This document shows positions 3,043 through 32,969 of a stretch of DNA of 47,079 nt, piece after piece. The DNA is taken from NCBI GenBank assembly GCA_050740195.1, contig JBOICR010000189.1, forward strand, positions 1-47,079, given 5' to 3'. Every line of letters begins with the position of its first letter. The stretch's first letter is position 1. Source of the DNA: Nevskiaceae bacterium (GTDB taxonomy: Bacteria > Pseudomonadota > Gammaproteobacteria > Nevskiales > Nevskiaceae). Made by a program: the position numbers and the translations under genes. Below the pieces are notes generated by a model that worked only from the letters and a program-made list of their open reading frames with translations, did no database searches and was not told where the DNA came from.

Positions 3043-3645
3043 ATGATGTCCACTAGACAGTTGGGTTTAAGCATCGGTTTAGCGTTAGCGTTCACCGCGG
3101 GAGTGTCGGGGGCGCAAGAGCTTTATTGGACACCCTGGGTTTCGGAAGAGAACGAGAGCCCCCCTACCATCTGCCAGGCACGGAACGAGGGGGCCGTCGG
3201 GTTCGGTTGGCCCGGTAGGTACTGTGACAATGTGCGACTTCTGTGCGAGACAATGCCCTACGGCATTGAGGTCGAGCAGTCGACAGACTATTGGTCGAAC
3301 TACTTCTCGGAGGAAGACAGCGGGCTCGGGACCGTTACTTCGGAGGGCTGGTACCGCTACGACGGCGACAACTACGAAGTCTGCCATCGGACCAACACCG
3401 CTGGCGTGGTCACGGGAATCGCCTGCACGGGCCGGTACTGCGACAACATCTCGATCGAGTGCGGTCGACCAGTCAAGTACAAGGCCGGCGCTACGCATTC
3501 GGCGCGACTAACGAACTGTGGCTGGCCGGGGTGGTACTCCGAGGAGCAGGGATCGGGCGACCATTTCTTCCTAGATACAGCCGAACCACTGCTTCTGAAG
3601 ACAATTGCTCGGGAGCGGCAGCACTCTGTGCGGATGTTCGCGTGA
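3043..3645 (+). CDS. secreted Cys-rich repeat protein, unknown family
   Basis: AGGAG at 3034-3038 lies before ATG 3043. The N-terminus MMSTRQLGLSIGLALAFTAGVSGAQE looks like a signal peptide. Internal repeats: W..SEE three times (WVSEEN, YFSEED, WYSEEQ) and GxxxxGRYCDN(V/I)x(L/I)xC twice (GFGWPGRYCDNVRLLC, GIACTGRYCDNISIEC). Confidence 0.6.
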   Translation: MMSTRQLGLSIGLALAFTAGVSGAQELYWTPWVSEENESPPTICQARNEGAVGFGWPGRYCDNVRLLCETMPYGIEVEQSTDYWSNYFSEEDSGLGTVTSEGWYRYDGDNYEVCHRTNTAGVVTGIACTGRYCDNISIECGRPVKYKAGATHSARLTNCGWPGWYSEEQGSGDHFFLDTAEPLLLKTIARERQHSVRMFA

Positions 3646-3650
3646 AGAAC

Positions 3651-4478
3651 ATGCCGGTAAACTCACCGCGTCCTTGGTGGAACCTTGCCCCAAAGACCCC
3701 AGTGCTGAGCAGCGACGAGGTGCATATCTGGTCTGCGAAATTAGACCAGACCGTGTCTCGCACGCATAATCTACAGCAGACCCTGGACGGAAACGAACGA
3801 GCAAGGGCCGAGCGCTTTTATTTCAGGAGAGACCGAAACCACTTTATCGTCGCGCGCGGGATTTTGCGGGTGATTCTCAGCCGCTATTTGAACAGCGACC
3901 CCGGCGATCTACGCTTTTGCTATAGCCCCTATGGAAAACCGATGCTAGCAAAGGAGTTTGACGGGGATCGGTTACGTTTCAACCTATCGCACTCCCACGG
4001 TCTAGTTCTCTATGCCATTACGCGTGGCCGGGAGATCGGTATCGACATAGAACGCATCCGTCCCGACCTAGCCTATGAACAGATCGCGGAGCGGTTTTTC
4101 TCTCCTCGGGAGGTGGCTGCGCTTCAAACCGTCCTCACGAGTCGCCAGCTAAAAGCGTTTTTTGACTGTTGGACCCGCAAGGAGGCGTACATCAAGGCTC
4201 GGGGCGAAGGACTTTCGCTTCCGCTGGACCGGTTTGACGTATCACTGGCCCCAGGGGAGCCAGCCACTTTATTGAGCACTGTTGGCGACCCACACGAAAC
4301 AAGCCGTTGGTCTTTACGGGAATTGGACTTGGCCCCTGGCTATGTGGCTGCTTTAGCTGTAGAAGGACATGACTGGCGACTAAAATGCTGGCAATGGGCG
4401 GAGGCGGATCCTGTAACACCAAACAGCGAACGACCGACAGAGCAAAATTCTCGGACCAACGCAGTCCCCCCGGTTTAA
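3651..4478 (+). CDS. Sfp-type 4'-phosphopantetheinyl transferase
   Basis: Motifs RFNLSHSHGLVLYAI, IGIDIERI and FFDCWTRKEAYIKARGEGL fit the FN(L/I)SHS, GxDxE and WxxKEAxxK motifs. The start is ATG 3651 (GTG 3642 is an alternative). The 395-aa track ORF from 3291 is an open-frame extension across the preceding gene. The last ~25 aa (EADPVTPNSERPTEQNSRTNAVPPV) extend past the usual family end. Confidence 0.85.
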   Translation: MPVNSPRPWWNLAPKTPVLSSDEVHIWSAKLDQTVSRTHNLQQTLDGNERARAERFYFRRDRNHFIVARGILRVILSRYLNSDPGDLRFCYSPYGKPMLAKEFDGDRLRFNLSHSHGLVLYAITRGREIGIDIERIRPDLAYEQIAERFFSPREVAALQTVLTSRQLKAFFDCWTRKEAYIKARGEGLSLPLDRFDVSLAPGEPATLLSTVGDPHETSRWSLRELDLAPGYVAALAVEGHDWRLKCWQWAEADPVTPNSERPTEQNSRTNAVPPV

Positions 4479-7847: not shown

Positions 7848-8918
7848 CTATTCCTTCACCACGGCGACGAGGTCGCCTTCCTTGAGGAAGGACCCCGCCT
7901 TCGCCACGATGGGCGTGCCGCCCAGTGATTCCTTGACCACCGCGCTGCCGGCCGTACGCATGACGACGGTCACGGGCTTGCGCGCCGCCACGTTTTTAGG
8001 ACCGACCTGCCAGACGTACATGCCCTGCGCGTCCTGCTGCAGCGCCGTGCCCGGCACGACCCAGCCACCCACCTTGGCCACGGTGATGCTGGCCTCGCAG
8101 AAGGCGCCGACCGGCGCCGCGCGCTCGCGCTCGAAGCGGATGCGCACGCCGGTGGCTCGGCTGGTGATGTCGACCAGCGGCATGATCAGCCGCACGCTGC
8201 CGGACTCCGGCGCGCTTTCGCCGGCGACCTTCAGCGTGACCGGCATGGCAGGCTTCAGCCGCTGCACCAAGGCCTCGGGCACGCTGGCTTCCATTTCCAC
8301 CTTGCCGTCCTTCGCGATGCGGAACAGCGGCTCGCTGCCGTTGGTCAGTCCACCGATCGTCGCGGTACGTTCGTAGATGAGCCCGTCCGTCGGCGCGACG
8401 ATCTGCGTCCGGTTGATGTTGAGCTGGGCGTCGCGTAGCCGTGAGCGCGCAACCTCGAAGGCGGCCTGGCGCTGTTGCAGCGACTCCTTGCTGATCACGC
8501 CGGACAACTGCAGCTCCTTGAACCGGGCGTACTCGTCACGCGTGCGGCCGAAATGCGACTGCAAGCTCTGGCTCTGGATGCTCAGGCTCTCGCCGTCGAG
8601 CAGGGCGATCCGCTGTCCTTGCTTGACGTAGTCGCCGGTCTCCGCGTAGACGGCGCGCACCCGCAGGCCGGCGAGTTCCGATATCACCACCACGTTCTCG
8701 CGCGGCACTACGGTGCCGATGACACGGATGTTGTCATCTAGCGTTTTCTGCGCCGCCGCGACGACGCTCACGCTGAGCACCGGCAAGGCCTTGGCTGCCT
8801 GCACCGAGGGCTTGGAGACGCCGCTCACGCCGACCCATGCGCCCATCCCCAGGCCGACCACCACCAATATCATGCCTAACGTGACTGGTCGCTTGCTCAT
8901 AGGGTGCTCCTTGCTCAT
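7848..8918 (-). CDS. RND efflux periplasmic adaptor (membrane fusion protein)
   Basis: 356 aa with an N-terminal TM/signal anchor (VTLGMILVVVGLGMGAWVGV). It has lipoyl/hairpin/beta-barrel signatures: GTVVPRENVVVISELAGLRVRAVYAETGDYVKQGQRIALLD, a coiled-coil stretch, and INRTQIVAPTDGLIYERTATIGG. ATG 8918 overlaps the upstream stop (ATGA). Confidence 0.9.
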   Translation of the reverse strand: MSKEHPMSKRPVTLGMILVVVGLGMGAWVGVSGVSKPSVQAAKALPVLSVSVVAAAQKTLDDNIRVIGTVVPRENVVVISELAGLRVRAVYAETGDYVKQGQRIALLDGESLSIQSQSLQSHFGRTRDEYARFKELQLSGVISKESLQQRQAAFEVARSRLRDAQLNINRTQIVAPTDGLIYERTATIGGLTNGSEPLFRIAKDGKVEMEASVPEALVQRLKPAMPVTLKVAGESAPESGSVRLIMPLVDITSRATGVRIRFERERAAPVGAFCEASITVAKVGGWVVPGTALQQDAQGMYVWQVGPKNVAARKPVTVVMRTAGSAVVKESLGGTPIVAKAGSFLKEGDLVAVVKE

Positions 8919-11224
8919 AGAGTGCTCATCGTTGTGGGGACGTCGATCCGGTGCCGCGTGAGCGCCGAGCGCGCCCGTGAATAGGCCAAATCCTGCAATT
9001 CGGAAAACTTCGCGTCGTAGGCACGCACGATGCCGCGCGGCGACACGAAGTCCTGGCCCGCTTGTTTGTAGAAATACCGCAGCACCTCGAATTCGCTGTC
9101 GCTACCGGACGCCTCGCTCATCAGGTAGTCGATGAATTCGAGCGCCGCGCTCTCGTGCACGAAATTCCAGGTCACCGAGATCGAGTCCTCGACGACCAGA
9201 ACGTCGTGCAGCCAGCCGTGCGGGATGTAGATCACCTCGCCGGGACGCACGAAACCGTGGAAGTCCGGTGGCGCGGACAGCATCGTCGGTGTGGGGCGCA
9301 CGTCGACGAAGCCGCCGAACGAGGTGCCGTCCGCGCGCCGCGCGCATAGCTCGTCGGCGCGCTCGGGACGATAGAGCACGACTTCCTTCACGCCGCTGAG
9401 CTGGCACACCACCGCGTCGCTGCAGAATGGGTCGCGGTGCAGCCGCGTGCGTGCGCCGCGCGCCGACACCAGCACGCCGCGATAGGGAAAGGCGTCACGG
9501 ACCGCGTCTGCGATCGGCTTGGCCGGCACGAGCATGCCGCGCTTCGGCATGAACGACGGCATGCGCCAATGCGGGCTCAGGCGGCGGAACGCCTCGTCGC
9601 CCCAGGCGTGGTCCACGTCCTTGAGTTTGTTGTACCAGCGCACGTAGGGGACCTTGTCGCGGTACTCGCCCGGCACGCCGAAATGCTGGTCCAGGTACGC
9701 GGCGAGCGTGGAAACCTCTTGCAGTGCAAACAGCGTGTCGTACACCTGCACCGGCAGGTTGCCGAGGCGGGCGCGGAAATGCTTGGGCGTCCAGCGGTCG
9801 CGGTCGAACGCCAGGTCACGCACGACGACGGGCAGGTTCGTACTCAGGTAGTTCTCGACGAACTCCTTTTCGGTCAGCGCGTCCAGGACCTCCAACGGCT
9901 TGGTATGGCTATTCCCACCTGGAGCGCGCGCCGGCACCGGCAGTTTTTTATCCAGCGCGACCGCGCTGCCGAGGTGCAGCTCCACCGCTGCGGCGATGAC
10001 GGCGAGGCCACGCTCGAGCACTTCGCGCTCGATGGTCAGCGCGGGCATGATCTTCAGCACCTGCCCGCGCGCGCCGCAGCTTTCGATGACCAGGTTGTTC
10101 TCGAAGCACAGGGTTATAACCGCGGCCGTATCGTGCTCGGAATCGAACTCGATGCCCTGCATCAAGCCCAGGCCGCGCGTGCCGCGGATGCGCGCCGGGT
10201 GCCGGCGGGCGATGGCCTCGATGGCGTGCCGGATGACCGCCTCCTTCGCGCGGAGTTCGTCTTCCATCCTGGCGCCGCTCCAGTAGCGCTGAAGCACCTC
10301 GACGGCCGCCACGAAGGCGAGGTTGTTGCCGCGGAAGGTGCCGTTGTCCTCGCCCGGCGACCACATGTCGAGGTCAGGGCGGATCAGCAGCAGCGCCATC
10401 GGGAAGCCCATGCCGCCGATGGATTTCGACAGGCAGACCATGTCTGGCTCGATGCTCGCGCGTTCGAAACTGAAGAATCGGCCGCTGCGGCCGCAACCCG
10501 CTTGGATGTCGTCGACGACGAGCGGGATCTCAAATTCCCGCAGCAGCGCACGCAGGCTGCGCAGCCATTCGACGGAGGCGACGTTGAGCCCACCCTCGCC
10601 CTGAATCGTCTCCAGGATCACCGCCGCCGGCAGGTCGACGCCCGAACTCCCGTCCTCGAGCAGCTTGCGCAGCAGCGCCACCGTATCCACGCCCTCGCCC
10701 AGATAGCCGTCATACGGCAGCCGCGTGACGGCGCCGTAGGCGACCGCCTGCCTGTGATACCGGTTGGCCGTCAGGTTCAAGGACACGCCGGTCATGCCGT
10801 GGAAGGCGTTGGTGAACGCGATGACGTTCTGCCGGCCGGTGACCTTGCGCGCCAGCTTGATCGCCGACTCCACGACGCTGGTGCCCGTGGGACTGGTGAA
10901 CTGCAGCTTGTAGTTGAGGCCGCGCGGCAGCAGGATCAGCTTCTGGAACGCCTCGATGAAGTTCTTCTTCGCCCTCGAGTGCAGGTCCAGGCTCATCATG
11001 ATGCCGTCGGCGCCGATGTAATCCAGCACCGCGCGCTTGGCGACGTCGTTGTTGTGCCCGTAGTTCAGGGCGCCCGCGCCGCACAGGAAATCGATGTAGG
11101 CCTCGCCGTCGTCGTCGTAGAGATGACTGCCCTTGGCCCTGGAGAACAGCACCGGGAATCCCCGACAGTAGGAACGGGCTTCCGATTCGTGTCTTTCGAA
11201 GGTCGCGAGTTTGTTCGAGCTCAT
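8915..11224 (-). CDS. fusion protein: diaminobutyrate--2-oxoglutarate aminotransferase (EctB/PvdH/Dat-like) + JmjC/cupin Fe(II)/2OG-type oxygenase domain
   Basis: 769 aa, single frame. See the two domain entries below. Confidence 0.85.
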   Translation of the reverse strand: MSSNKLATFERHESEARSYCRGFPVLFSRAKGSHLYDDDGEAYIDFLCGAGALNYGHNNDVAKRAVLDYIGADGIMMSLDLHSRAKKNFIEAFQKLILLPRGLNYKLQFTSPTGTSVVESAIKLARKVTGRQNVIAFTNAFHGMTGVSLNLTANRYHRQAVAYGAVTRLPYDGYLGEGVDTVALLRKLLEDGSSGVDLPAAVILETIQGEGGLNVASVEWLRSLRALLREFEIPLVVDDIQAGCGRSGRFFSFERASIEPDMVCLSKSIGGMGFPMALLLIRPDLDMWSPGEDNGTFRGNNLAFVAAVEVLQRYWSGARMEDELRAKEAVIRHAIEAIARRHPARIRGTRGLGLMQGIEFDSEHDTAAVITLCFENNLVIESCGARGQVLKIMPALTIEREVLERGLAVIAAAVELHLGSAVALDKKLPVPARAPGGNSHTKPLEVLDALTEKEFVENYLSTNLPVVVRDLAFDRDRWTPKHFRARLGNLPVQVYDTLFALQEVSTLAAYLDQHFGVPGEYRDKVPYVRWYNKLKDVDHAWGDEAFRRLSPHWRMPSFMPKRGMLVPAKPIADAVRDAFPYRGVLVSARGARTRLHRDPFCSDAVVCQLSGVKEVVLYRPERADELCARRADGTSFGGFVDVRPTPTMLSAPPDFHGFVRPGEVIYIPHGWLHDVLVVEDSISVTWNFVHESAALEFIDYLMSEASGSDSEFEVLRYFYKQAGQDFVSPRGIVRAYDAKFSELQDLAYSRARSALTRHRIDVPTTMSTL
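9080..9898 (-). other. domain: JmjC / cupin-8-like oxygenase (aa ~443-715)
   Basis: The facial-triad candidates are TRLHRDPF (HxD) and IYIPHGWLHDV (distal His, compare the (Y/F)IPxGWWHxV consensus). It is preceded by the linker AVALDKKLPVPARAPGGNSHTKP. Confidence 0.7.
9965..11224 (-). other. domain: class-III PLP aminotransferase, DABA-transaminase type (aa 1-420)
   Basis: FERHESEARSYCRGFPVLF, LNYGHNN, FTSPTGTSVVESAIKLARKVTGR, ILETIQGEGGLN, VVDDIQAGCGRSGRFFSFE, PLP-Lys context CLSKSIGGMGFPMA, GEDNGTFRGNN. These are collinear with EctB/PvdH-type enzymes as I know them. Confidence 0.85.
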
Positions 11225-11273: not shown

Positions 11274-12344
11274 TCACCACTTGAACCGCAGGCGCGCGAA
11301 TACGAGCGTGAACACGCACCACCCGCCGAGAACGACGATCTCGGCGTATAGCTTCGTGATGTTGTGGAATCCGACCGAGCCGAACAGCAACTCGCGCATC
11401 GCGGTGTTGAGCTGCGTCAGCGGCATCACGCGCGTGACGGTCTGCAGCCATTCGGGGAAGGCGCTCACCGAGAAGAACACGCCGCCGAGGAGGATGAGCG
11501 GCATCTGCACGAAGTTCACGATGCCGTTGAATGCAGTCACCGACGGACTGGCGGTGGCGAGTACCAGACCCAGGCCGAGGAAGGACACGCAGCCCAGCGT
11601 GATGACGACCAGCAGCAGCGGGTAGTTGATGTCGGCCGGTATGCCGAACGCCAGCACGCCGATCAGCATCAGCGCCATCGCGATGCTGTAGCACACCAGC
11701 AAGCGCGAGAAGAACAGGCCGGCCAGGAATGGCAGCGGCGAGGCGTCGATGGTCTTGATGTTCTTGAACAAGCCGTGATCGCGCTCCTCGATCAGCACGC
11801 CGCCGAAGCCGTTCAGGCCGACGATCAGCAAGGTCATGCCGATGAGTCCGGGCAGCAGCGTGACGAGATAAGAGGTGTAGCGGTTGGTCGGCAACTCGTG
11901 CAGCTGTGCCGGCGCCGCTTCGGCGGCGCGCAGCGACTCGTCGACGATCGCGCGAAGAGCCGTGTTCTCGACCTGGTTCTCGGCCAGCGAATTGGCGTAC
12001 AGCTCCCCCACGAAACCGCCCTTGGCCTCCGGCGCGGCGCGCAGCTCCAGGTAGTGCTTGACGTCGTTGTTCATCAGCGCCTGCTGCGCTGATACCTCGG
12101 GCTTGGCATACGGCACCAGCTGCACCAGGGCACGGCCTTGCAGGCGCTGCACGAAGGCTGCGCTGGCATCGGTCGTGGCCAGGTCGGCGTAGGCCACCGC
12201 GATCACCGGCTTGTCGCGCATCTGCATCGGATAGCCGACGCCCAGCAGTAGCAGCACCGGCAAGAAGTAGCAGAAGAACAGCGCCGTCTTGTCCGATTTC
12301 AGCTGCAGCATGCGCAGCTTCATGAATATCCAGCTCTTTTTCAC
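11274..12344 (-). CDS. ABC-2 type exporter permease
   Basis: 356 aa. TM1 (ALFFCYFLPVLLLLGVGY) is followed by a ~130-aa extracytoplasmic loop and then five further hydrophobic helices (..LVTLLPGLIGMTLLIVGLNGFGG.., ..FLAGLFFSRLLVCYSIAMALMLIGVLAF.., ..LLLVVITLGCVSFLGLGLVLA.., ..VNFVQMPLILLGGVFF.., ..IVVLGGWCVFTLVFA). GTG 12344 overlaps the NRPS stop (GTGA). ATG at 12323 is an alternative start. Confidence 0.85.
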   Translation of the reverse strand: MKKSWIFMKLRMLQLKSDKTALFFCYFLPVLLLLGVGYPMQMRDKPVIAVAYADLATTDASAAFVQRLQGRALVQLVPYAKPEVSAQQALMNNDVKHYLELRAAPEAKGGFVGELYANSLAENQVENTALRAIVDESLRAAEAAPAQLHELPTNRYTSYLVTLLPGLIGMTLLIVGLNGFGGVLIEERDHGLFKNIKTIDASPLPFLAGLFFSRLLVCYSIAMALMLIGVLAFGIPADINYPLLLVVITLGCVSFLGLGLVLATASPSVTAFNGIVNFVQMPLILLGGVFFSVSAFPEWLQTVTRVMPLTQLNTAMRELLFGSVGFHNITKLYAEIVVLGGWCVFTLVFARLRFKW

Positions 12345-15300
12345 AATGGCAGCTCCTTGCCCGTGTGCGACAGGAACACGTCTTCCAGCGTCGGGCGGTT
12401 GATGTCAAAGTTCACCACGTCGATGCACGCGGCATGGCTCAACGCGAGCACCTCGCGCAAGGTGTCGGTCACCCGCGGCGTGCGCAGGCGCAGGCAGTCG
12501 GTGCGCTCGTTCCAGTCAGCATCGGTGGCCTCCACGACGCCGTCGAGCATCTCCGGCCGGAACTGGCCGCGGCCGAACTGAAACTCGATCGAGTGGTGCG
12601 CGCCGAGATTCTTGGCCAACTGCAACGGATTGCCCTGCGCGATGACCCTGCCCCGGTCCATCAGCAAGATCTCGTCGCACAGCCGTTCGGCCTCCTCCAT
12701 GTAGTGCGTGGTGAGGATGACGGTCTTGCTAGGGTCCTGTTTCAGGTCCTCGATGAACTCCCAGGTCGAGATGCGGCTGTGCGGATCGAGCGCGGATGTC
12801 GGCTCGTCGAAGAAGATCACGTCCGGGTCCTCCAGCAGCGCGATGGCGATGGACAACCGCTGCTTCTGGCCGCCGGACAGCTCGTCCACCTTGAAGTCGA
12901 GCTTGTCCTTCAGGTCCAGCCGCTCCAGCAGCGAATCCGCCGACCGGCCGCGGCGCTTGCCGCCTACGGCGGCACGCAGTTCCTGGTAGAACTTGAGCAG
13001 CTGCGCCACCGTGAGGAACTGGAAGTAGTTGTTCTGCTGCAGTTGCACCCCAACGTGCGGTTGGATGCGGTGGATCTCGCTGGCCACGTCCATGCCGAGC
13101 AGGCGGATGGACCCGGACGTGATCGGAACGATCCCTTCGATCATGGCCAGCAGCGAGGTCTTGCCGGCGCCGTTGGGGCCGAGGATGCCGAAGCAGCAAC
13201 CCTGGCGCACCGAGAAGCTGACGCCCTTGACGGCTTCGAGATCTCCGTAGCGCTTGCGCACGTCGCGCACTTCCAGGGAGTAGACCGGGGCAGCGACTGA
13301 CAGCGGCGCAGCAGCGGCTCCCGCGGCATCTTCGTGCGCGACGTCGCCGGCCGGCAGCGGTGCGGTTGCGCCGACCTCGCTACCCGCCACGCTGCGCCTC
13401 ACCGCTTCGGAGTCGGCCGCATCGCCGCGGAAGGCGCAGTGCAGCTCCAAGCCCTCGGCGCCGACGGCAGCCTCGAACAGGATGCCGCGAAAGTCTTTCA
13501 GCTTGTCCATCAGGAATCCCCCGTCCGGCGCTGCGGACTGTTGCAGCGCGTCCGCCTGGAAATTGAAGAGCACCTCGCACTCGAGCGGCGGCAGCGTGCC
13601 GTCCCACTCGGAGCCTGCCGCTTGCGCCAAGCCGAGATAGTTGATGCCGAGTCTTTGCAGCAGCTGCGCTCTGGCCGCAAGTCGTTCCAAGGCGGTGTCT
13701 GCATCCACCGCAAAGGGCACCTTGTCCAGGAACAGGCCGACCTGGTCGAACCAGCGCTCGCCGCCCGACTCACGGCCATGGTGGTTGAGCAGCACGCCGT
13801 AGCGCGCGAGCCCGGTGAGCCGCTCGACGCAGCGTTTGAAGCATCGGAACGCCTGCTCCGCGGGCGTGCCGTCGGCGACGTCGAGCGGCAGGTGCAGCTG
13901 CAGGCTTTGCAGCGGGGCCTGGGCGCGGCGCAGCAGCGCATGCTGCGTGGTGTGCATCGTGGCGGCGAGATCGACGCGGGCTATGGCCGTGTTCAGCATC
14001 GCCGCGGCCTGCGCGTCCGGCAGCCGCCACACCGCATCGACATAGCTCCGGTAGTTGCGGCTGAGGCCGCCGGCGGTGCCGCGCAAGTGCTGCTGCAGGC
14101 GCTGCTGCAGCACCGCCGCCGACATGCCGTCCCAGACGAGATGGTCGACGGCCAGCAGCAGCCGGTGCTCGAGATCGCCCAGCGAAACCACCGCGGCGGC
14201 ATAGGCCAGCGGCGTGGTCTTTCTGGCGGCCAGAAGTTCGGCGCCCAGGCGTTTCAGCAGCTCACCGTGCCTCGCAGGATCGTGTGCGCTCAGGTCCACG
14301 GCCGGTATCGAGGCCGCCGCGATCGCGTCGGCCTCCAGCAAGCGCCACTGCGCCGGCGTGTCGTCGGGTGCCGCGCGCAACAGATCCTGCTCGGCGGCAA
14401 CGTCGGCAAACGCCTGTTGCAGCTCCGCCGCGGTGTACCAGCCTTGCAGCGCAACCATGTCGATCCTGTCACGGCTTTGCCAGGCCATCAGGTTGCGCTG
14501 GATCGGGCTGAAACGCAGGGAGGTCTCCACCGGCGCGTTCGCAAGCCGTTGCTGATGGACCTTCAGCTGCGCCCGCAACGCGTCGAACAACGCGGCCTCG
14601 GTCTGCACCGGCGCCAGCGCCGCAATGCCGGCCTCCCCAACCTGCTGCGACAGCGCGGCCAGATCATCGGCGTAGCGCACGAAGTGCGGACGCTGCTGCG
14701 GCTCCACCGTGGCGAGCAGCGTCTGCAGGGTCTTGCGCCGCGCGCTCTCGCTGCGATCGAGCAGCAGGGCGGTGCGCCGCGGGTTGCCGCCCAGCGTGAC
14801 GATCGCATGACGCCAGCCGTCGTCCAGCGGCCAGTCCGCTGCGCCATGCCGCTGCGCATCGATCGCCGCCGCGCAGGCGCTCACGGTGCGCAGCTGGTAT
14901 ACCTCGGTGACGCCGAGACTCATGCCCTGGTCCTTCCACCGGCTCAGCATGCGGATCAGCAACAGCGAGTTGCCGCCCAGATCGAAGTAGCTGTCGCCAC
15001 GACCGACCTGCGGCAGCTGCAGCAATTCCTGCCAGAGCGCGGCGATCGCGCGCTCGGTGTCGCTCTGCGGCGCCTCGTATTCAGCCCGTGCGAACGCGGC
15101 CGAGGTCGGCTCGGGCAAGGCCTTGCGGTCGACCTTGCCGTTGGCATTCAACGGCAAGGCGCCGAGCACGACGATCGCTGCCGGCATCATGTAGTCGGGC
15201 AGCTGCGCACGAAGGTGCGCCTGCAGCGCCTCGGCGCCGACGGGCGCCTCCAGCGTCACATAAGCGACGAGATGGTGATCGCCTGGAGCGCGCTCGCGTG

Positions 15301-18300
15301 CGGCCACGATCGCTTCGCGCACCGCCGGGTGCTGCGCGAGGCAGCTCTCGATCTCGCCCAGCTCGATGCGGAAGCCGCGGATCTTCACCTGGAAGTCCTT
15401 GCGTCCGATGAACTCGAGACTGCCGTCGGGCCAGCGCCGCACCAGATCACCGGTGAGATATACGCGCTGCTCGCCCGCATGTCGTGCACGGGGATTGGTT
15501 CTGAAGGCGGCTTGCGTTTCTTCAGGGCGGCCGATGTAGCCCCGCCCGACCACCGGCCCCGAGATGGCCAGCTCGCCCACCGCGCCAAGCGGCAACAGCA
15601 TCAGATGCTCGTCGACCACGTGCAGCTGTGCATTGGCGACGGGCTTGCCGATCAGGACACGCTCCACCGGCGCAAGGATCGCCTGGAACGCCACATCGTC
15701 GGAGCATTCCGCTGGCCCGTAGGCGTTCATCAGCGGGATGCCGGGGTACTGCTCGAACCAGCGCGCCACCAGCTCGCGCGACAGCGCCTCGCCGGTCGGC
15801 ATCACCCAGCGCAAACAGGTCATCGGCTTGCGGCAGGTCAGTGCGGCCTGCATGACCGAGGGCACCGGCTCCCATACCGTGGCCCGCTCCGCGGTCAGGT
15901 GGTCGAGCAGCGCCTCGGGGTCGCGCGTGAGGTCGTTCGCCACGATCAGCACCTTCCCTCCGAGCAGCAACGCCGTGAGGAACTGCCAAACGGAAATGTC
16001 GAAGCACTGCGAAGCGGTCTGCGCGATCACGTCGTCTGCGCCGAGCCCGAGCGGCTCGAACTTCGAGCGCATGTTGTTGACCATGCCGCGGTGCTCGATC
16101 ATCACGCCCTTGGGCTTGCCGGTCGAGCCGGAGGTGAAAAGCACGTATGCCAGGTCGTCCAACGCCGGATAGGGCAGCGCCGTCGTTGCTGGCGCAGGGC
16201 CGGCCAGCAGGTCGGCCATGCTGCTCACCTGGCCCGCCGTCCACTTGCGACGCAGCCAGCGCTTCTCCGTCGCGAGGCCGTCACCCACCCACAGGATCAG
16301 CGGCTGCGCCTCTTGCAGGACATCCAGCCAGCGCTGCGACGGGTGCTCCGGATCGAGCGGCATGTAGGCCGCGCCGGATTTCAGCACGGCGACGATCATC
16401 ACCAGCAGGTCGATCCCGCGCTGGTCCAGCAGCGCCACGATCTGGCCGGGGCCGGCGCCTTGCGCCACCAGCTTGGCGGCGAGCCGCGTGGCGCGCTGCT
16501 GCAGTTCACGGTAGCTCAGCTGCGCCGTGCCGCATCGCACCGCAATGCGATCGGGTGTGCGCGCGGCCTGCTCGTCGAACGTCTCGGGCCAGCCCCGCTC
16601 GTACAGCTCCGGCCGGCTGGTGTCGTTGAAGGCCTGCAGCAGCCGGTGCTCGTCATCACCGAGCAGGTCCAGCGACTGCGCCGGCCGCTCCATGTCGGCA
16701 ACCATTGCCGCGACCACGCGCTGCAGGTAGCCGACCTGACGCTGCATGGTCTCGGCATCGAACAGCGCCGTGGCGTATTCGAAAGCGCCGGCGATACGGT
16801 CGCCGTTCTCGCCGATGTCCAGCGTCAGGTCGTACTTCGACAGCGTGCCGGGTGGGCGCAGCGGCGTGGCCTGCACGCCCTCGAGCGCATAGTCGTTCAG
16901 GCCCTGGTCCTGCCAGTTCAGCATCAGCTGGAACACCGGCGTGTGGGCCAGGCTGCGCGGCGGCTGCACGATCTCCACCACCTGCTCGAACGGCAGCTCC
17001 TGGTAGCGTTGTGCATCGAGCACTTGGCGTTTCACCCGCTGCAGCAATTCGGCCAGCGTCGGGTTGCCCGACAGGTCCAGGCGCAGCGCCAGCGGGTTCA
17101 CGAAGAAGCCGATCATCGGCTCGGTGTCGAGCTGCGCGCGGTTGGCCACGGGGGTGCCGATCACCAGGTCGTGCTGTCCGGACAGCCGGGACAGCACCAC
17201 CGACCAAGCCGTCAGCAACGTTATGAACAGCGTGGTGCCATGATGCCGGCTCAGCGCCTTGAGCTGCACGGTCGTCCCGACGTCGAAGCCGAGCTCGACC
17301 AGGTCGCCTGCATAGTCCTGCTGCACCGGACGCGGCCGGTCGATGGGCAGCTCCAGCAGCGGCGGCGCGCCGGTCAGCGTGCGCCTCCAGTAGTCGCTTT
17401 GCTCCTGCCACAGCGCGCCGGTCAGCCATTGCTGTTGCCAGGCGGCATAGTCGGCGTAATGCAGCGCGAGCGGCGGCAGCGGATCGTCGCCGCCGCTGAC
17501 GTAGGCGGCGTAAAGCGCCTGCAGTTCCTGCTGCAGCAGCGCCAGCGACCAGGCGTCCATCACGATGTGGTGCATCATGATCAGCAGCACATGGTCGTCC
17601 GGCCCGACGCGCACCAGATCCCCACGGATCAACGGTCCAGCCATCAAATCGAACGGTGCGTCGAACGCATCGCTTATCAGGCGCTGGGCTGCCTGCTCGG
17701 CATCGGTCCGGTCGCTGAAGTCGTGCGTTCGAAGCGTGAAGCCGACGTCCTCGGCGGCGATGCGTTGCGTCGGCTCGCCGTCGATCGCATGAAAGGTCGT
17801 GCGCAACACTTCGTGTCGCGCCACGATGCGGTCTAGCGCGCGCCGCAGCGCCGTTGCGTCCAGGCGCCCGCGCAGGCGCAGCGTCCCCGGGATGTGGTAC
17901 GTCTGGCTCACGCCTTCCATCTGGCCGAGGAACCACAAGCGGTGCTGTGCAAACGACAGCATGAGCGGCTTGTCGCGCGGCACCCGCGAGATCGGCGGCA
18001 ATGCGTCGCGTGAAGCCTGGTCCACGGTTGCGGCGAAATCCGCGAGCACCGGCCACGCGAACAGCTCGGCCACGTCCATCTCGGCGCCAAGCTCAGCACG
18101 CACTCGCGCGATCACCCGCATCGCCAGCAGGGAATGCCCGCCCAGCGCAAAGAAGTCCGACTTGGCGCCGATCTGCTCGGTGCGCAGATGCAGCACAGAT
18201 GCCCAGATCGCCGCCAGGCGCGCCTCTGTCGCCGTGCCCACCGGCATGTTGTCGCCGCCCACATCCAGCTCGGCGGGCTCGGGAAGCGCCTTCTCGTCCA

Positions 18301-21300
18301 GCTTGCCGTTCTTCGTCAGCGGCAGTTGTTCCAGGATCAGGATGGCCTGCGGCAGCATGTACTCGGGCATGGACAGCCGCATGAAGGCGCGTATCGAGGC
18401 CTTGAGCTCTTCCTCGCCGGCCGATGCCTGTGCCGGCACCACCCAGGCCAGCAGCCGCTGCTCGCCGCCGGTGCCGCGCACCAGCACGGCCGCATCCCGG
18501 ACCTGCGGGTGGGCCTGGATGCGACCCTCGATCTCGTTCAATTCGATGCGGAAGCCCCGCAGCTTGACTTGGCGGTCGCGCCGGCCAACGAATTCGATGC
18601 AGCCGTCGTCGAGCCAGCGGCCGAGGTCGCCGGTGCGATAGACGCGCCCGCCCTCGACCCAGGGGTCGGGGATGAACTGGCAGTCGGTGAGCTCGGGTCG
18701 ATTCAGGTAAGCTTGGGCTACGCCGTCGCCGCCGATCCAGATCTCGCCGGTCAGTCCCGGGGCGCACAGCTGACCGAGGCGGTCGACCACGTACATGGTC
18801 GTGTTGGAGATTGGCTTGCCGATCGACAGCGTCCGCCCTTTGAGCGCACCCGGCTCGCACACCCAGGCGGACGACAGGATCGTCGTCTCGGTGGGGCCAT
18901 AGCCGTTGATATAGCGGCAGCGCTCGCCCCAGCGCCGCACGAGCTCGAGCGTGGGAGCCGACCCCGCGGTCAGCAGCGTCAGGTCCGGCGGCACGAGCGC
19001 GGGATCCATCTGCTGCAGATAGGTCGGCGGGAAGGCGGCGAAGCGGATGTCGTGTGCGCACAGATACTGCGCAAGCGCGCGCGGGTCCTGGATCAACGCG
19101 TCGGCCAGCAGGTGCAGTTCGGTACCGGCGAGCAGTCCGGCAAAGATCTCGCCGGCCGAGGCGTCGAAGGTATAGGGCGCGAACTGCGTCGTTCGGTCGC
19201 CCGCCCGGAACAGGTCCACCTGCGTGCACCAGGAGCAGAAATTGACGAGGTTGCGGTGGGAAATCGCAACGCCCTTGGGCGTCCCCGTGGTGCCCGAGGT
19301 GTAGATGACGTAGGCGGTGGCCTGCGGGTCCACGTCGACCAGGCGGCCATCGGCATCATCGAGCTCGGCCGGACAGTCCTCCAGGCAAAGCAGGTTCTCG
19401 TCCGCCGGCGCGTCGCGCCCGGACCGTTGCGTCAGCGTGCAGCGGATGCCGGCATCGGCCAGCAGGAAGGCGCGGCGCTCCGGCGGACAGTCGAGCGCGA
19501 TGGGCACGTAGGCGGCGCCGAGACGCGTGACCGCCAGCATCGCGGCGACCAGCGTCGGTTCCTTGCGCAGGGACAGCGCCACGCGCGAGCCCGCCGACAC
19601 GCCGTTGCGGGCCAGCCAGGCCGAGAGGATGCGCACCCGTTCGTCCAATTGTTCATATGTCCACGTTTCCTCGCCACAGACGATGGCGACGGCCGCGCCG
19701 CGGCTGCGTGCCGTCGCCTCGAACAGCGCCGGCAGCGCGCGATCGCCCGGATATGCCACAGCCGTGTCGTTCCACTGCCGAACCGCCCGCTCCTGCTCGG
19801 CCTCGCTCAGAAGGGACAACTGCGCGAGTGTCTGCCCGCCGCCCCTGGCGAAACTGGCGAGCAACCGCTCAAGTCGGCGCAGCAGCGTCGCAATGGTCTG
19901 CGCATCGAACAGCGCCGTGCGGTAGGCCAGCTTGAGCGCCAGGCGCTCGCCGGGATAGACCGCCAGGTTCAGTGCGAAGTCGTTCTGCTCGACGCTCTCG
20001 ATGGCGACGATGCGGGGAAGATTGGCCGCCGCGGACAGCACCGAGCGGTCCAGCGGATAGTTTTCGACCACCACCAGGCTGTCGAACAGCGCCTGCCCAC
20101 CGCGCGCGCCGCTGCACCGCTGGATATCCGCCAGCGCGAAGTGGCCGTGGTCGTCGTGGTCCAGTTGGCGGCGCTGAATCTCCTTGAGCCAGGCGCCGAG
20201 CCTGCAATCGCCATCGATCTTCAGGCGCAGCGGCAGTGAGTTGATGCAGATGCCGACCAAGGATTCGCTGCCGGCGAGTTCCGGCGAGCGGCCGCTGGCG
20301 GCATAGCCGAACAGCACTTCCGGCTCGGCGTTGTACTTGCTCAGCAGCAACCCCCAGGCCGCAAACATCAGCGGGCCGAGGCCCACGCCCTCGGCGCGCG
20401 CGAGCCGCGTCAGCCGCGCCGTAGCCTCGACCGGCAGCATGCGCGTCTCCAGCGCCTGTTCGTAGTGCCGCGGCGGCGCCGCGTCATCGGCGCGCAGCGG
20501 TGCGAGCGGCAAACTCGCGCTGGCGGCGATGTCGAGGCCGTCGAAGTAGGCGTGCCAGTAACGTTCCGCCGCCGGCCGGTCGCGCGACTTCAGCCATTCG
20601 ACGTGATGCCGCCAGGCGGGCCGTGCCGCTGTCGCCGGTTCCGAACCGGCGTAGATCTCGAACAGTTCGTTGATCAGCAGCCCGATCGACCAGCCGTCGA
20701 GCAGCGCATGGTGGTGGGTCCAGGCCAGGCAATGGCCTTCGTCGCTCGTGCGCACCAGCAGGAGGCGCATCAGGGGCGCGGCCGCGACGTTGAATGGCTG
20801 CGTCCGCTCTTCCGCCAGCAGCCGTTCCAGCGCGTCCGCACCGCGGAGCGTCCGGCCGTCCACTTCGCGCCAGGGCAGCTCGACGCGCTCGCAGACCACC
20901 TGCAGCAGGCATGCCAGGCCGCAATCGACGAAGGCCGTGCGCAGCACATCGTGCCGCTCGAGCAGCGCCTGCCAGCTTTGCCGCAGCCGCGCCGCGTTGG
21001 CGCCGTCGAGCTCGATCCGCAGCTGAGTGAGATAGACCCCACTCTGCGGCGCGCGAGCACTGAACAGCAGCAGGCCCTGCTGCATGCCCGTGCAAGGGTA
21101 GACGTCCTTGCAACCGGGATAGCGCGACTTCAGCGCGGCGATGTCGACCGGCGCCAGTTCCGCGAGCCCGAATGCGTTCGATACGGCGGTGTCCGCCGTC
21201 CCCATGCAGTGCGCAACGATCGCGCGCAGGGCCTCTACGTAGCGCGCGGCCAGCGCAGCAATGGTGCCGTGCTCGAACTGCTCCCGGCTGTAGTCGAAGC

Positions 21301-24300
21301 GCAGCAACAGCACGCCGTCGCGGACCAGGCCCCCGATGCGCAGCGCATGCGTGCGGCGCCGGCGCGGGCTGACCTCGCTGCCGCCGACTGTCGCCGCATC
21401 GAATTGCCCGAGGTAGTTGAACAGGATCTCGGACGCGCCGTCCGCACAGGCGGCGACCTCCTCGTCCTGCGCGAGCCGCCGCAGCACACCGTAGCCTAGG
21501 CCCTTGTGCGGCACGGCCTCGAGCTGCGTCTTCGTGCGACGGATCTGTGCGCCGATCTCTGCACGCACGTCGCTCAGTTGCAATGGATAGAGCGTGGTGA
21601 ACCAGCCGACCGTTCCACTCGCATCGAGCCCGTCGAACAGGTCTGCGCCTTGCGGGCTTTCGCGGCCGTGGCCTTCGAGATCGATGCGCACGGCGTCGGC
21701 CGCGAGCCACTCGCCGAGGGCCCGGCCGAGTGCGGCGATGAGCAGTTGCTGGGTGCGTGTGGCGTGGCGCGTGTTGGCTTGCTGCAGCAACAGGCGCGTG
21801 TCTTCGGCGCCGAGGCTGGCCTCGACGATGGACGTGGTCGTCTCCAGCGGCTGCATGCCCTCGCCTGCCTGCGGCAGATCGAAGCGCAGGCGGGCGCAGG
21901 ACTGCGACAGTTGGCCGATCCAGTACGCGCGCTCCTGCTCCAGCGCCGGGCTGTAGGCGTAGTCGTGCAGGCGCGAGGCCCAGTCCTGGTAGCTGGCAGG
22001 CTTGGCCTCCAGCGCCACCGCTTCGCCGCGGCCGAGCTGCGCCAGCGCGGTCGCCAGGTCGGCAGCCAGGATGCGCCAGGACACCACGTCGACCACCATA
22101 TGATGCATGACCCACAGCAGCCGTTGCTCACCGCCTTGCACCACCCGGCGCCAGCCGAAGAGCCGGCCCTGGCGGATGTCCAGCTGTGCCAGCACTTGCG
22201 CTACGTGGACGGCAGGATCGAATTCGCCGGGCGGTTCCGTGGTACCGAGAAATGCTTCCAGCATTGCCGGCGTCGGCGAAAGCAGCTCTGGCCGGTAGTA
22301 GGCGACCCAGCCACCGGCCGTCTCGCGGAACTTCAGCCGCAGCGCGTCGTGGCGCGCGACCAGCGCCGCCAGCGCCGATCGCAGCATGTCGTGCGTGATC
22401 CCATGGGGCAGCGCGACGAGCGTGTACTGGCAATAGCGATCGACGTCGATGCGGTCGTCCTGCAGGAATTGCAGCTGGATCGGCAACAGCCGCTGCTGAC
22501 CCTGCACGGGCCGTTCGGCTGGTGTCGGGGGGGGTGCCGGCGCGGCCTTGCCGGCCTCCGGGCTCGCGACCCGGCCGACGAGCTTGCGTATCGTCTGCTC
22601 CTCGACCATGAGCCGCGGCGTCAACGCCAGGCCCTGCTTGCCCGCCTTCGCGACGACCTGGATGGTGAGGATGGAATCGCCGCCGATGGCGTAGAAGCCG
22701 TCCGTCACACCGAAGGAGTCGGTGCCCAGCACCTCTTTCCAGATGCTCCACAGCGTCCGCTCGGCCTCGTTTTCCGGCTCGGCGTGGGCGCCGTGGGCGT
22801 AGGCGGATGCATCCGGTTCCGGCAGGCGCGCGCGGTCGATCTTGCCGTTGGCGTTGCGCGGCATCGCATCCAGCACCACGAACGCGGCCGGCACCATGTA
22901 CTCGGGCAGTGCGGTGCGCAGGCGCGTCACCAGCGATGCGATCAGCGCGGTCTTGTCGACGGCGTCGGCGCGCTTGGCGACGAGATAGGCGACCAGCTGC
23001 TTCTGGTTGCCGTTCTGCTTGACCAGCACGACGACCTGCTTGACCTCGTCGTGGTTGGCGATGGCCGTCTCGATCTCTCCGAGCTCGACGCGGAAGCCGC
23101 GGATCTTGACCTGGTGGTCGATGCGTCCGAGGAAGTCGATCAGTCCGTCCTCACGCCAGCGCACAAGATCGCCGGTGCGGTAGAGGCAGGCGCCGGGCTC
23201 GGCCGAATATGGATCCGGGACGAACTTCGCCGCCGTGAGCTCCGGCTGGTTGAGATAGCCGCGCGCGACACCGGGACCGCCGACGTACAGCTCGCCGTTC
23301 ACGGCGGGCGGCAGCAGCTGACCGTCACGATTGATAACGTACGCCGTGGAGTTGGTGATCGGCCGGCCGATCGGAACGATCTCGGCATCCGCATCGGAGA
23401 CGAAGTGATACGTGGAGAACGAGGTGTTCTCGGTCGGTCCGTAGCCGTTGATGACGCGCAGGCCCGGGTTGGCCCGGCGCGCCAGCCGCACGTGCGGTGC
23501 GGAGAGCGCGTCGCCGCCGATCATCAGCTGGCGCACGCCGGCGAACAGGTCGGGCTGTTCCTGCACCAACTGGTTGAACAGCGGCGCGATCAGCCACAGC
23601 GTCGTCACGCGCTTGGCGCGTATCTCGGCGGCGAGCGCCGCCGGATCAAGCAGCGTTTCCTCGTCCACGATCGCGAGCGGCAGGCCGTTGAGCAGCGCAC
23701 TCCAGACCTCCCACGTGGTCACGTCGAAGCCGGGCGCACTGGTGAGCAGAATGCGGTCGTCGGGCGCGAACGCGATGTCGGCCGAGTTCGCGATCAGACG
23801 CACGATGGAGCGGTGCTCGATCATGACGCCCTTCGGATTGCCGGTCGAACCGGAGGTGTACATCACATAGGCGAGCTGCCTGCTGTCATGCGCGGCGGAC
23901 GGCGCCGCGTCGGGTGCGTCCGCGACGGGCTCATCCAGGTACAGCGGCGTGATGTCCAGCTCGGCGGGAATCGCGGACGCGAGGTCGCGGCGCTGAAACA
24001 GCACCACCTTGCAGCCCACGTCCTTGACCATGTGGCGCACGCGGTCGGCGGGGTAGCGCGGGTCGATCGGCACGTAGGCGCCGCCGGCCTTGAAGATGGC
24101 CAGGATGGCAACGACCATGTCCGGCGAACGCTCTGCCACGAGCCCGACCACAGTCTCCGGCCCGACGCCTTGCGCGCAAAGCACGCGCGCCAGGGCGTCG
24201 GTTCGTTGGTCCAGCTCGGCGTAGCTGACCGTGGTGTCCCTGTACAGCAGGGCCGGACGTGTCGGATGAAGCTCGGCCTGTACACGGAACAGCTCGTGCA

Positions 24301-31388: not shown

Positions 31389-31668
31389 CCGCGTGGCGTG
31401 CGGTTGTCTCAGCGGTGAGATCCAACTTGGCTTCCAGCAGGTTCACGACGTCGGCGAGCGTGTAGAGATCGCGCTTGCCCGAATCGGGCACGCGGATGCC
31501 GAGGCGCTGTTCGAGTTCGTACCAAATCTCCAGCATCTCGCGGGAGTCGATGCCGAGGTCCCCGCCCAGATAGAAATCCGGGTCGACAGAGTCGTACGTG
31601 AATCCCGTCTTCTTGATGTCGTTGACGACCTGCAGCAGCATGGCCATCGCGTCGTTGCGCTTGCTCAT
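31381..31668 (-). CDS. free-standing acyl carrier protein
   Basis: 95 aa, acidic, with the phosphopantetheine site YLGGDLGIDSREMLEIWYELE. Confidence 0.85.
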   Translation of the reverse strand: MSKRNDAMAMLLQVVNDIKKTGFTYDSVDPDFYLGGDLGIDSREMLEIWYELEQRLGIRVPDSGKRDLYTLADVVNLLEAKLDLTAETTARHADA

Positions 31669-31696
31669 TTCGTAGCCTCCAGTGGTATACCCAACC

Positions 31697-32941
31697 TTAC
31701 ATGCAACCCAGCTCGCGCGCCGCCGCGACGATCATCGCCACGGCCGTGTCAATCTCTTCGTGCGTGTGCGTCGCCATCACCGACAGTCGCAGTCGCGCCA
31801 GTCCCGGCGGCACCATGGGGTACTCCATGATGTTGGCGAACAGCCCGCGCATGTACAGCAGCCGGTTGATCCTGCGCACTATGTCGTCCTCGCGGAAGAA
31901 CACCGGGATGATTCCGGACTCGCCGCGGATGATCTTCAGTCCCGCCGCCTCGCAGCGGTCCTGCATGTAGCGCACGTTGCGGTGCAGCGTCGCGACGCGC
32001 TCGGGTTCGCGGTCCAGGATGTCCAACGCCGCGGAGATGGCCGCGATCGTCGGCTGGGCCAGTCCCGATGTGAACAAGTACGGATAGGAATAATTGCGCA
32101 GCAGGAAGATCATTTCCTTGCTGCCGGAGACGAACGCGCCCTGCGCTCCGATCGCCTTGCTGCACGTGGACATGCGCAGGTCGACCTGGCCGATGAGGTC
32201 GAGATGCTCCAGCGTGCCGCGCCCGGTCCGGCCGACCGTGCCGAGGCCGTGGGCGTCGTCGAGCACGGTGATGACCTCGTGACGCTTGCAGATCTCCACA
32301 TAGCGCCGCAGATCGATGATCGTGCCGTCTATCGAACGCACGCCCTCGACCGTCGAGAAGATCTGCACGTCCTTGCCGGCGCGCCGCTGGATCGTCTCGA
32401 GCAGGTTCTCGAACGCGTCCAGCTTCTCCGGATCGAAGGTGAAGAACTGCACTCCAGTCATCTTGATGGCGTTGACGACGCTGGCGTGGCTGTTCTTGTC
32501 GTAGACGATGATGTCGTTGCGATTCATCAGCCCATTGACCCAGCACAGGTTCGCCATGTAGCCGCCCGGCAGGAGCACCGCGTCGTCGTGGTCGGCCAGC
32601 TTCGCCAGCCGCTGCTCGAGGCGCTTGTGCTGCTGTGTGTAGCCGGAGAAGGCCGGCGAGCCGCCCGAACCGATGCCATAGCGGTTCACGGCCTCGATCA
32701 CCTTCTGCTTCACGTACGGATCGTTCGACATGCCGAGATAGCTGTTCGAACCGAAGACCAGCACGTCGTTGTAGACATCGCTGTATAGGTCCTTGTACTG
32801 CATCCGGCGATCGACGGGGCCGACGCCTTCACGGCCGGCCATGTAACCCTGCTCGAGCTCCTTGAGGTAGACGGAGTACTGGAAGGCCAGCCGCTGCTTG
32901 AACGGCTGCCGCTGAAGTTCGATCAACGCTCTGGAATCCAT
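31697..32941 (-). CDS. alpha-oxoamine synthase family PLP enzyme (AONS / serine palmitoyltransferase / KBL-like)
   Basis: 414 aa. LVFGSNSYLGMSNDP, GIGSGGSPAFSGYTQQHKRLEQRLA, LLPGGYMANL, NSHASV, VLDDAHGLGTVGRTGRG, PLP-Lys context MSTCSKAIGAQGAFVSG. Confidence 0.85.
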   Translation of the reverse strand: MDSRALIELQRQPFKQRLAFQYSVYLKELEQGYMAGREGVGPVDRRMQYKDLYSDVYNDVLVFGSNSYLGMSNDPYVKQKVIEAVNRYGIGSGGSPAFSGYTQQHKRLEQRLAKLADHDDAVLLPGGYMANLCWVNGLMNRNDIIVYDKNSHASVVNAIKMTGVQFFTFDPEKLDAFENLLETIQRRAGKDVQIFSTVEGVRSIDGTIIDLRRYVEICKRHEVITVLDDAHGLGTVGRTGRGTLEHLDLIGQVDLRMSTCSKAIGAQGAFVSGSKEMIFLLRNYSYPYLFTSGLAQPTIAAISAALDILDREPERVATLHRNVRYMQDRCEAAGLKIIRGESGIIPVFFREDDIVRRINRLLYMRGLFANIMEYPMVPPGLARLRLSVMATHTHEEIDTAVAMIVAAARELGCM

Positions 32942-32969
32942 GTTGCCCTTCCTTCTGTTCTGGGGAGAT

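Follow-up and report, generated by a model that had tools for sequence, protein, structure and literature searches.

β-Hydroxy-2,4-diaminobutyrate (β-OH-Dab) is a rare residue whose reported occurrence is limited to odilorhabdins, ogipeptins, and alterins (PMC7764243), the first being antibiotics in development and the other two lipopolysaccharide-binding lipopeptides. Alterins contain three hydroxylated 2,4-diaminobutyrate (Dab) residues and one Dab (PMC7764243), and the odilorhabdin product contains two Dab(βOH) residues (PMC8749412). No assignment of the enzyme that makes β-OH-Dab was found in the literature searched. The odilorhabdin (odl) locus as cloned begins with ectB, and three genes, ectB, 'b', and oatA, precede odl1; the work on this locus did not study 'b' (PMC8749412). 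In X. nematophila, the order is ectB, a Cupin_8 gene of 285 aa, GNAT, and nonribosomal peptide synthetase (NRPS). The odilorhabdin locus (ectB, 'b', oatA, odl1-4) therefore has a Cupin_8/JmjC gene directly after ectB at the head of an NRPS cluster, and the same pairing occurs in the window, the whole 47,079-nucleotide stretch of DNA analyzed here (contig JBOICR010000189.1, GenBank assembly GCA_050740195.1, from a Nevskiaceae bacterium). However, whereas the odilorhabdin genes are separate, in the window an EctB-type Dab transaminase and a JmjC/Cupin_8 oxygenase are fused in one protein of 769 aa.

The fusion gene is a single open reading frame (ORF) without interruption, whose stop codon overlaps the start of the next gene as ATGA. 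The in-frame joining of an EctB-type aminotransferase with a JmjC/cupin oxygenase, proposed in a preliminary description made from the sequence alone, is borne out by Pfam and NCBIfam. In Pfam, Aminotran_3 matches aa 23-413 (E 6e-67). Cupin_8 covers aa 454-692 with 54.6 bits, the gathering score being 27.4, and the match spans profile positions 4-250 of 252; JmjC and JmjC_2 match more weakly at aa 652-691, over the last strands. Every motif quoted in that description is found in the ORF (FERHESEARSYCRGFPVLF, NYGHNN, ETIQGEGG, DDIQAGCGRSGRFFSFE, LSKS, GEDNGTFRGNN, TRLHRDPF, and IYIPHGWLHDV), and the linker between both halves lies in the region that the description had flagged for a check of the reading frame.

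For the N-terminal half, the score with TIGR02407, the NCBIfam equivalog for ectB, is 616.2 bits, above the cutoff of 552.2. The collinearity claimed with Dab transaminases holds for aa 8-415, which align over the full length with residues 3-411 of a solved enzyme (PDB code: 9S1Q; E 6.6e-138), and a second structure is also aligned to this half (PDB code: 6RL5; E 3e-127). The Ser-Lys-Ser motif of the pyridoxal phosphate (PLP) site is kept, with LSKS in the fusion opposite VSKS in 9S1Q, the catalytic role of the PLP lysine being a general feature of class-III aminotransferases. Homology thus supports that this half is an EctB-type Dab transaminase, which would produce Dab and 2-oxoglutarate (2OG). 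Its 415 residues correspond to a full-length member of the EctB/PvdH/Dat family, and the gene, like pvdH and the odilorhabdin ectB, is located in a peptide cluster, where it would supply Dab. Nonetheless, the nearest nonfused EctB proteins (75-77% identical) end at ~437-442 aa, whereas the fusion continues into a C-terminal oxygenase domain.

Regarding this second half, the solved relatives are remote by sequence (JMJD6, E 1.4e-6; FIH, E 5e-4). An AF2 model of the domain, obtained with 34 homologs (pLDDT 90.1, pTM 0.88), was matched by Foldseek with JMJD6, TYW5, JMJD5, PHF8, and JMJD7 at E values from 1e-17 to 1e-13, a TM score of ~0.6, and 17-19% identity, the values being E 1.4e-17 and TM 0.61 for JMJD6 and the target-normalized score (TMt) reaching 0.81 for JMJD5. 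Residues H596, D598, H673, K613, and T593 are invariant across the 34 homologs and stand opposite the metal- and 2OG-binding positions of JMJD6, the roles of these residues being established from JMJD6 and FIH. The His-x-Asp...His set recognized in the preliminary description is therefore intact, and the predicted residues for 2OG binding, whose lack it had named as a counterargument, are present as Lys613 and Thr593. From alignment and model, the domain looks catalytically competent, and by its sequence, the H-x-D triad is of the hydroxylase type, not of the halogenase type. An EctD- or TauD-like hydroxylase was also considered and is ruled out by the absence of TauD and PhyH domains in the fusion (no Pfam match at E ≤ 0.1). 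VioC and AsnO (CAS/TauD) are Fe(II)/2OG enzymes that hydroxylate amino acid building blocks, and EctD (PhyH) hydroxylates a Dab-derived solute, but their fold family differs from that of the cupin half, and they are functional analogs only. In contrast, JMJD6, FIH, JMJD5, JMJD7, and TYW5 have in common with the fusion the double-stranded β-helix fold, the H-x-D...H triad, and the Lys/Thr positions for 2OG. These enzymes hydroxylate protein residues or tRNA, whereas the fusion domain is bacterial, linked to small-molecule biosynthesis, and joined to an amino acid-forming enzyme.

A search of 5.8 billion proteins yielded only three further EctB-cupin fusions (P0001-P0003), of 766-784 aa and 78-80% identical, which belong to one clade and whose loci keep the order NRPS, ABC-2 permease, fusion, membrane-fusion protein, and resistance-nodulation-division (RND) pump. 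In a scan of 1.84 billion cluster representatives, none of the best 150 matched both halves in any order. Apart from this fused clade, the two activities are separate proteins in every ortholog found, as had been stated, and no characterized example of the fusion was found in the literature searched, nor was one named in the preliminary description. The split loci illustrate the ancestral arrangement. For example, in L005 and in Lysobacter enzymogenes (L006), a Cupin_8 gene of 309-312 aa follows ectB with a 4-bp ATGA overlap, in another reading frame, whereas in the window and in the other fusions the EctB stop and the cupin ATG are both gone and the frames are joined. In a neighbor-joining tree, the four fused forms constitute one clade nested among split Lysobacterales orthologs, which argues for a single event; the fusion would have arisen once, by loss of the ATGA stop/start overlap between two translationally coupled genes. 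Among the fused sequences, dN/dS is 0.14-0.29 for both domains, whereas the linkers show 15-31% identity among them, a dN/dS of ~0.6-1.5, and an open frame in all cases. These values indicate that both halves are under purifying selection and that the linker is unconstrained, yet stays open. Judged from these comparisons, the fusion is genuine, rare, and phylogenetically shallow, being a recent joining of two coupled genes.

EctB is also found fused to other partners in the representative library, as Haem_oxygenas_2::EctB, aspartate kinase::EctB, EctB::PLP decarboxylase, and GNAT::EctB (P0242, P0270, P0271, P0268, and P0355). Among such partners, Dab decarboxylase and EctA-like acetyltransferase, together with aspartate kinase, have Dab as substrate or provide its precursor, and a heme-oxygenase-like oxidase is found as well. 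By analogy, these partners would point in the same direction for the cupin. The fusion of EctB with a heme-oxygenase-like protein is itself another possible Dab-oxidizing pairing.

At E ≤ 1e-5, 360 homologs of the cupin half are found, almost all being stand-alone proteins of 300-315 aa. A pairwise comparison of the cupins adjacent to ectB defines two Cupin_8 subfamilies, named here type A and type B. The window domain belongs to type A, with 48-72% identity to 33 members (L005, 72%; L. enzymogenes, 70%; Teredinibacter turnerae, 56%; Pseudoalteromonas, 53%), and the motifs PYVRWY, GARTRLHRDPF, FGGF.DVR, PHGWLHD, and TWNF.H are invariant or nearly so. Type B includes gene 'b' of odilorhabdin and the second cupin genes of Pseudoalteromonas and T. 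turnerae, with 41-46% identity among them. Genes of type B lie at L012:11330-12187, L013:10962-11834, L008:18555-19487, and L024:7472-8614. Between types, the identity is ~24%, and the window domain aligns with the odilorhabdin gene 'b' at 24% over 127 aa, which falls short of orthology. Type B would be a candidate Dab β-hydroxylase in its own right. No characterization of either cupin type or of a Dab hydroxylase was found in the literature searched, and a 2022 review of Fe/2OG oxygenases acting on free amino acids mentions neither Dab nor JmjC enzymes.

A survey of 55 reference loci, with one genome per species, shows an EctB gene within 6 kb of the type A cupin in ~40 of them, this linkage extending over Gammaproteobacteria, Alphaproteobacteria, Actinomycetota, and Bacteroidota. 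The nearest loci are those of L. enzymogenes, Thermomonas, and metagenome-assembled genomes (MAGs) of Lysobacteraceae, and no cupin in the reference genomes exceeds 71% identity. In this Lysobacterales lipopeptide clade, the gene order is NRPS, ATP-binding cassette (ABC) ATPase, ABC-2, EctB, cupin, membrane-fusion protein, and RND pump, and in the window as well as in all Lysobacterales clusters only type A is found. The loci of Pseudoalteromonas, T. turnerae, and L024 carry type A, often with type B as well. A Bacteroidota clade is more distant (38-40% identity). One locus labeled 'MAG: Chitinophaga pinensis' (L048) has a Lysobacterales-type cluster whose cupin groups in the tree with the Thermomonas and Lysobacteraceae loci (L016-L018), which looks like a binning or labeling error in the public record.

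The Pseudoalteromonas loci, which by their genes resemble alterin and ogipeptin producers, are ordered as ectB, type A cupin, type B cupin, aspartate kinase, ABC, and NRPS. The first modules of this NRPS have the code DIWELTADDK and then a Thr code, which fits the Dab-type/Dhb start of alterins. These loci share with the window a type A cupin directly after ectB, but differ from it in having separate genes and an additional type B cupin. The window likewise has both elements, a cupin joined to EctB and an NRPS module of Dab type.

A large clade, from Alphaproteobacteria, Crenothrix, and Actinomycetota, presents a fixed operon of EctB, a synthetase of 1413-1437 aa from the Pls/PosA family (TIGR02353, 523-540 bits against a cutoff of 423), and the cupin. 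This operon is seen in L027:4363-10900, L043:4327-11603, and ~20 further loci (L028-L051), in hosts such as Roseovarius aestuarii, Crenothrix polyspora, Filomicrobium, Rhizobiaceae, and MAGs of Actinomycetota, and a phosphopantetheinyl transferase (PPTase) gene follows the cupin in L043, the one locus of this kind checked for it. All the Pls-type synthetases carry the code D[F/Y]E.[L/I/M]S.V[T/S]K. No paper matching this operon was found in the literature searched, and its gene content predicts an undescribed cationic polymer of Dab or hydroxy-Dab. Type A therefore accompanies two unrelated kinds of assembly line, the modular NRPSs of lipopeptides, which have a DIWE[L/M]TADDK module, and homopolymer synthetases of the Pls/PosA type. 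The evident elements common to both are EctB and an amino acid-loading enzyme, and no other observation speaks more strongly for an action of type A on Dab. The type A oxygenase very probably modifies Dab, most likely by hydroxylation.

Adenylation (A) domain codes were extracted by GrsA numbering, with the positions of D235 and K517 checked. The method is validated by module 2 of Odl1, for which the extracted code agrees with the β-OH-Dab code published for odilorhabdin, DVWQMIGDDK (PMC12283262). The four codes of the window NRPS are DAAALAAILK (A1), DVWWMGGSFK (A2), DAGALAGILK (A3), and DIWEMTADDK (A4). Every locus of Lysobacterales, Pseudoalteromonas, or T. turnerae whose retrieved flank includes an A-domain has a DIWE[L/M]TADDK module. 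A distinction between Dab and hydroxy-Dab from the code was attempted and failed, DIWE[L/I/V/M]TADDK being generic and found in NRPS fragments of Pseudomonas syringae; this code is not listed in the literature searched. Also, A1 (26800-29000 region) and, together with it, A3 (18100-19850 region) have unusual Ala/Gly-lined codes without a substrate match, and DAGALAGILK recurs just before the Dab module in L002, L004, L016, L017, and L048. Two loci from Sphingobacteriales and Cytophagales (L057, positions 4000-16500, and L058) combine EctB and an NRPS with a type A cupin of 38% identity, and L057 has a type B cupin as well. In them, two different Dab-like codes are found, DIWEMTCDDK and DIWEMVGDDK, the latter resembling the odilorhabdin code.

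Based on these data, we propose, with a probability of roughly 45%, that the fusion is a bifunctional enzyme in which one half produces Dab and 2OG and the other consumes them, giving the hydroxy-Dab that the last NRPS module takes up. The EctB domain would convert L-aspartate-4-semialdehyde and L-glutamate into Dab and 2OG, a step supported by homology. Then, the JmjC domain would hydroxylate Dab with O2 and the 2OG released as co-product in a 1:1 ratio. The most likely position would be C3, because hydroxylation at C4 would simply undo the transamination by deaminating Dab, and the substrate would preferably be the free amino acid. According to its specificity code, A4 would take in this Dab-type building block as the last residue of a hybrid of trans-acyltransferase (trans-AT) polyketide synthase (PKS) and NRPS, and the adjacent ABC-2 and RND systems would export the final compound. 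The preliminary description had already suggested the supply of Dab and a hydroxylated derivative as a building block. This idea gains from the Dab-type A4, from the linkage of ectB and cupin in ~40 loci, and from β-OH-Dab being a constituent of what related loci produce, and loses from the generic code of A4 and from the odilorhabdin cupin belonging to the other subfamily; we still infer it as the best-supported reading.

An assembly or sequencing artifact was considered for the fusion itself, in which an error of ±1 base in the A6 run of the linker (9944-9949) would have joined two genes that are separate in reality. With a one-base change in that run, EctB would stop at aa 439 or 450, near the 437-438 aa of the split orthologs. 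However, this explanation is very improbable: the three closest relatives are fused too, with different linkers, and the linker of L002 has no homopolymer run of five or more bases, its coding sequence being identical in three independent assemblies. Moreover, L004 (a Logan assembly) and P0001 (from JGI) are likewise fused, the cupin part in the window no longer has its ancestral ATG, and all the fused forms fall in a single clade. More serious objections concern when the oxygenase acts and what it does. The oxygenase acting on a carrier-bound residue, an alternative raised in the preliminary description, stays a live rival, in which A4 loads plain Dab, the cupin hydroxylates Dab on the T4 carrier or within the peptide, and the fusion serves to co-localize or co-regulate both activities without channeling. 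We consider this unlikely, although several points that weigh against our proposal lend it substance. To our knowledge, the characterized JmjC hydroxylases all act on proteins, peptides, or tRNA and none on free amino acids, and the nearest structural relatives (JMJD6, JMJD5, FIH, and TYW5) have macromolecular substrates. The DIWEMTADDK code of A4 is a generic Dab code, the same that occurs in P. syringae, whereas the β-OH-Dab module of odilorhabdin has a distinct one (PMC12283262). In the laxaphycin/scytocyclamide cluster, the Cupin_8 proteins LxaF and LxaG are predicted to hydroxylate Leu and Asn once these are loaded, a prediction likewise argued from the A-domains (PMC7524897). These are oxygenases of an NRPS/PKS cluster with a proposed β-hydroxylation, and they differ from the window fusion in having no aminotransferase link; their role is still a prediction. 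On the other hand, modular NRPSs and Pls-type synthetases differ in architecture and in their carrier domains, yet both are served by enzymes 53-57% identical that keep one set of invariant residues, so that a free substrate is the simpler explanation. Also, fusion to a soluble enzyme whose co-product is the co-substrate of the oxygenase fits channeling, and the EctB fusion partners of known role act on free Dab or its precursor. For these reasons, hydroxylation of free Dab is favored.

The chief difficulty lies in the nature of the reaction. Of the cupins next to ectB, only that of odilorhabdin is linked with a proven β-OH-Dab product, and it is of type B and ~24% identical to type A, being the sole type beside ectB in that locus. 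Also, both types stand side by side in Pseudoalteromonas, L024, and L057, which suggests that they are not redundant, and a few type A genes of Rhizobiaceae, a subclade nested inside the Pls clade, have no EctB gene nearby. All these observations speak against C3 hydroxylation by type A, which may perform a related but different oxidation. If so, the Dab β-hydroxylases would be those of type B, and type A would either oxidize Dab in another way (other stereochemistry, desaturation, or a second oxidation) or act on another target, such as another residue or a protein, or in resistance or regulation. We regard this as improbable, more so than action on a carrier-bound residue. There is not much else that C-H oxidation could usefully achieve on Dab, given that hydroxylation at C4 would lead to deamination, and the triad is not that of a halogenase. 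Moreover, since the window and the Lysobacterales clusters have no type B, type A must suffice there for any tailoring of Dab that they need, and the linkage with EctB is too consistent for an unrelated target. Hydroxylation of Dab by type A is thus maintained as the preferred reading for the window.

The fusion is of wider value for what it brings to light: a JmjC subfamily of broad distribution that is linked with Dab biosynthesis, another in the odilorhabdin locus, and the EctB-Pls-cupin operons. In the broadest and rather doubtful version, type A would be a widespread family of dedicated L-Dab hydroxylases, the first JmjC-fold enzymes on a free amino acid, coupled stoichiometrically to EctB through 2OG and feeding hydroxy-Dab both to lipopeptide NRPSs and to a so far unrecognized class of Pls/PosA-type synthetases that make cationic poly(hydroxy-Dab) in Alphaproteobacteria, Crenothrix, and Actinomycetota. 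In that case, the window fusion would be the 'Rosetta stone' that reveals the EctB-cupin pairing. In any case, the fusion and the conserved pairing provide two JmjC subfamilies as concrete candidates for β-OH-Dab formation. The pairing can also guide genome mining for peptides with Dab or hydroxy-Dab and for what may be a new family of Pls-type cationic polymers. Should free Dab be the substrate of type A, the substrate range of JmjC oxygenases would be broader, and a one-protein biocatalyst for a nonproteinogenic diamino acid could be possible.

The fusion gene is part of a long operon on the minus strand that comprises a trans-AT PKS/NRPS hybrid and export genes (Table 1). The placement in an NRPS operon, as first described, is right in that an NRPS with a Dab-type module is present, but the operon is a hybrid and not purely NRPS.

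Table 1. Features of the fusion gene and of the surrounding cluster in the window. KS, ketosynthase; KR, ketoreductase; DH, dehydratase; ACP, acyl carrier protein; C, condensation; T, thiolation; SDR, short-chain dehydrogenase/reductase.
Feature	Position	Strand	Basis
Full fusion ORF, EctB::JmjC/Cupin_8, 769 aa, ATG start	8915..11224	-	ORF list, Pfam, NCBIfam
EctB-type L-2,4-diaminobutyrate:2-oxoglutarate transaminase domain, aa 1-415	9980..11224	-	TIGR02407, collinear with 9S1Q and 6RL5
Predicted PLP Schiff-base lysine K267 in LSKS	10424..10426	-	Alignment to VSKS of Dab transaminase 9S1Q
Linker, aa 416-441, from former EctB tail and stop/start overlap	9902..9979	-	Junction comparison with split orthologs
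JmjC/Cupin_8 type A Fe(II)/2OG oxygenase domain, aa 442-742	8999..9901	-	Pfam Cupin_8, AF2 model, Foldseek, 360 homologs
Predicted metal-binding H596-x-D598 (LHRDP)	9431..9439	-	Invariant in 34 family members; JMJD6 H-x-D alignment
Predicted distal metal-binding His673 (GWLHD)	9206..9208	-	Invariant; aligned to JMJD6 WWH motif
Predicted 2OG C5-carboxylate-binding Lys613 (GVKEV)	9386..9388	-	Invariant; aligned to Lys of JMJD6 GHKRW
Thr593 at His-3	9446-9448	-	Invariant in family
Upstream part of operon as a whole	29490..47079	-	Pfam, motif scan
Trans-AT-type PKS (3 KS, 2 KR, 2 DH, 4 ACP, a C domain)	33971 to beyond 47044	-	Pfam, motif scan
SDR	32970-33974	-	Pfam
Alpha-oxoamine-synthase-like aminotransferase	31697-32941	-	Pfam
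Discrete acyltransferase	29490-31388	-	Pfam
NRPS, 5740 aa (4 A-domains, 4 T motifs, weak terminal C-like domain)	12341..29563	-	Pfam, motif scan
Fourth and last NRPS A-domain A4, code DIWEMTADDK (Dab-type), predicted consumer of the fusion's product	14939..16702	-	Code extraction
ABC-2 permease directly upstream of fusion	11274..12344	-	Pfam
Membrane-fusion protein directly downstream of fusion, translationally coupled (ATGA overlap)	7848-8918	-	Pfam
RND pump	4640-7843	-	Pfam
Sfp-type phosphopantetheinyl transferase	3291..4478	+	Pfam ACPS/AASDHPPT_N

A second fusion is present in the operon, the C-terminus of the NRPS being joined to the ATPase of an ABC transporter (~12344-13276; Pfam ABC_tran, Walker A at aa 5462). 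This ATPase is a separate gene of 315 aa in L005 and L. enzymogenes and is fused to the NRPS in L002, L004, and T. turnerae. No thioesterase was found after the last T domain of the NRPS (12341-15340, the C-terminal 1000 aa), where only a weak, below-cutoff condensation-like region (motif DHLVWDG) precedes the ATPase; the L. enzymogenes cluster has a thioesterase as a separate gene. The 5' end of the window (1-4600) has a G+C content of 0.59-0.61, compared with ~0.68 in the cluster, and contains an ORF of 290 aa without a Pfam match (581-1453) and, on the opposite strand to the operon, the PPTase gene. This region of low G+C may be the boundary of the cluster.

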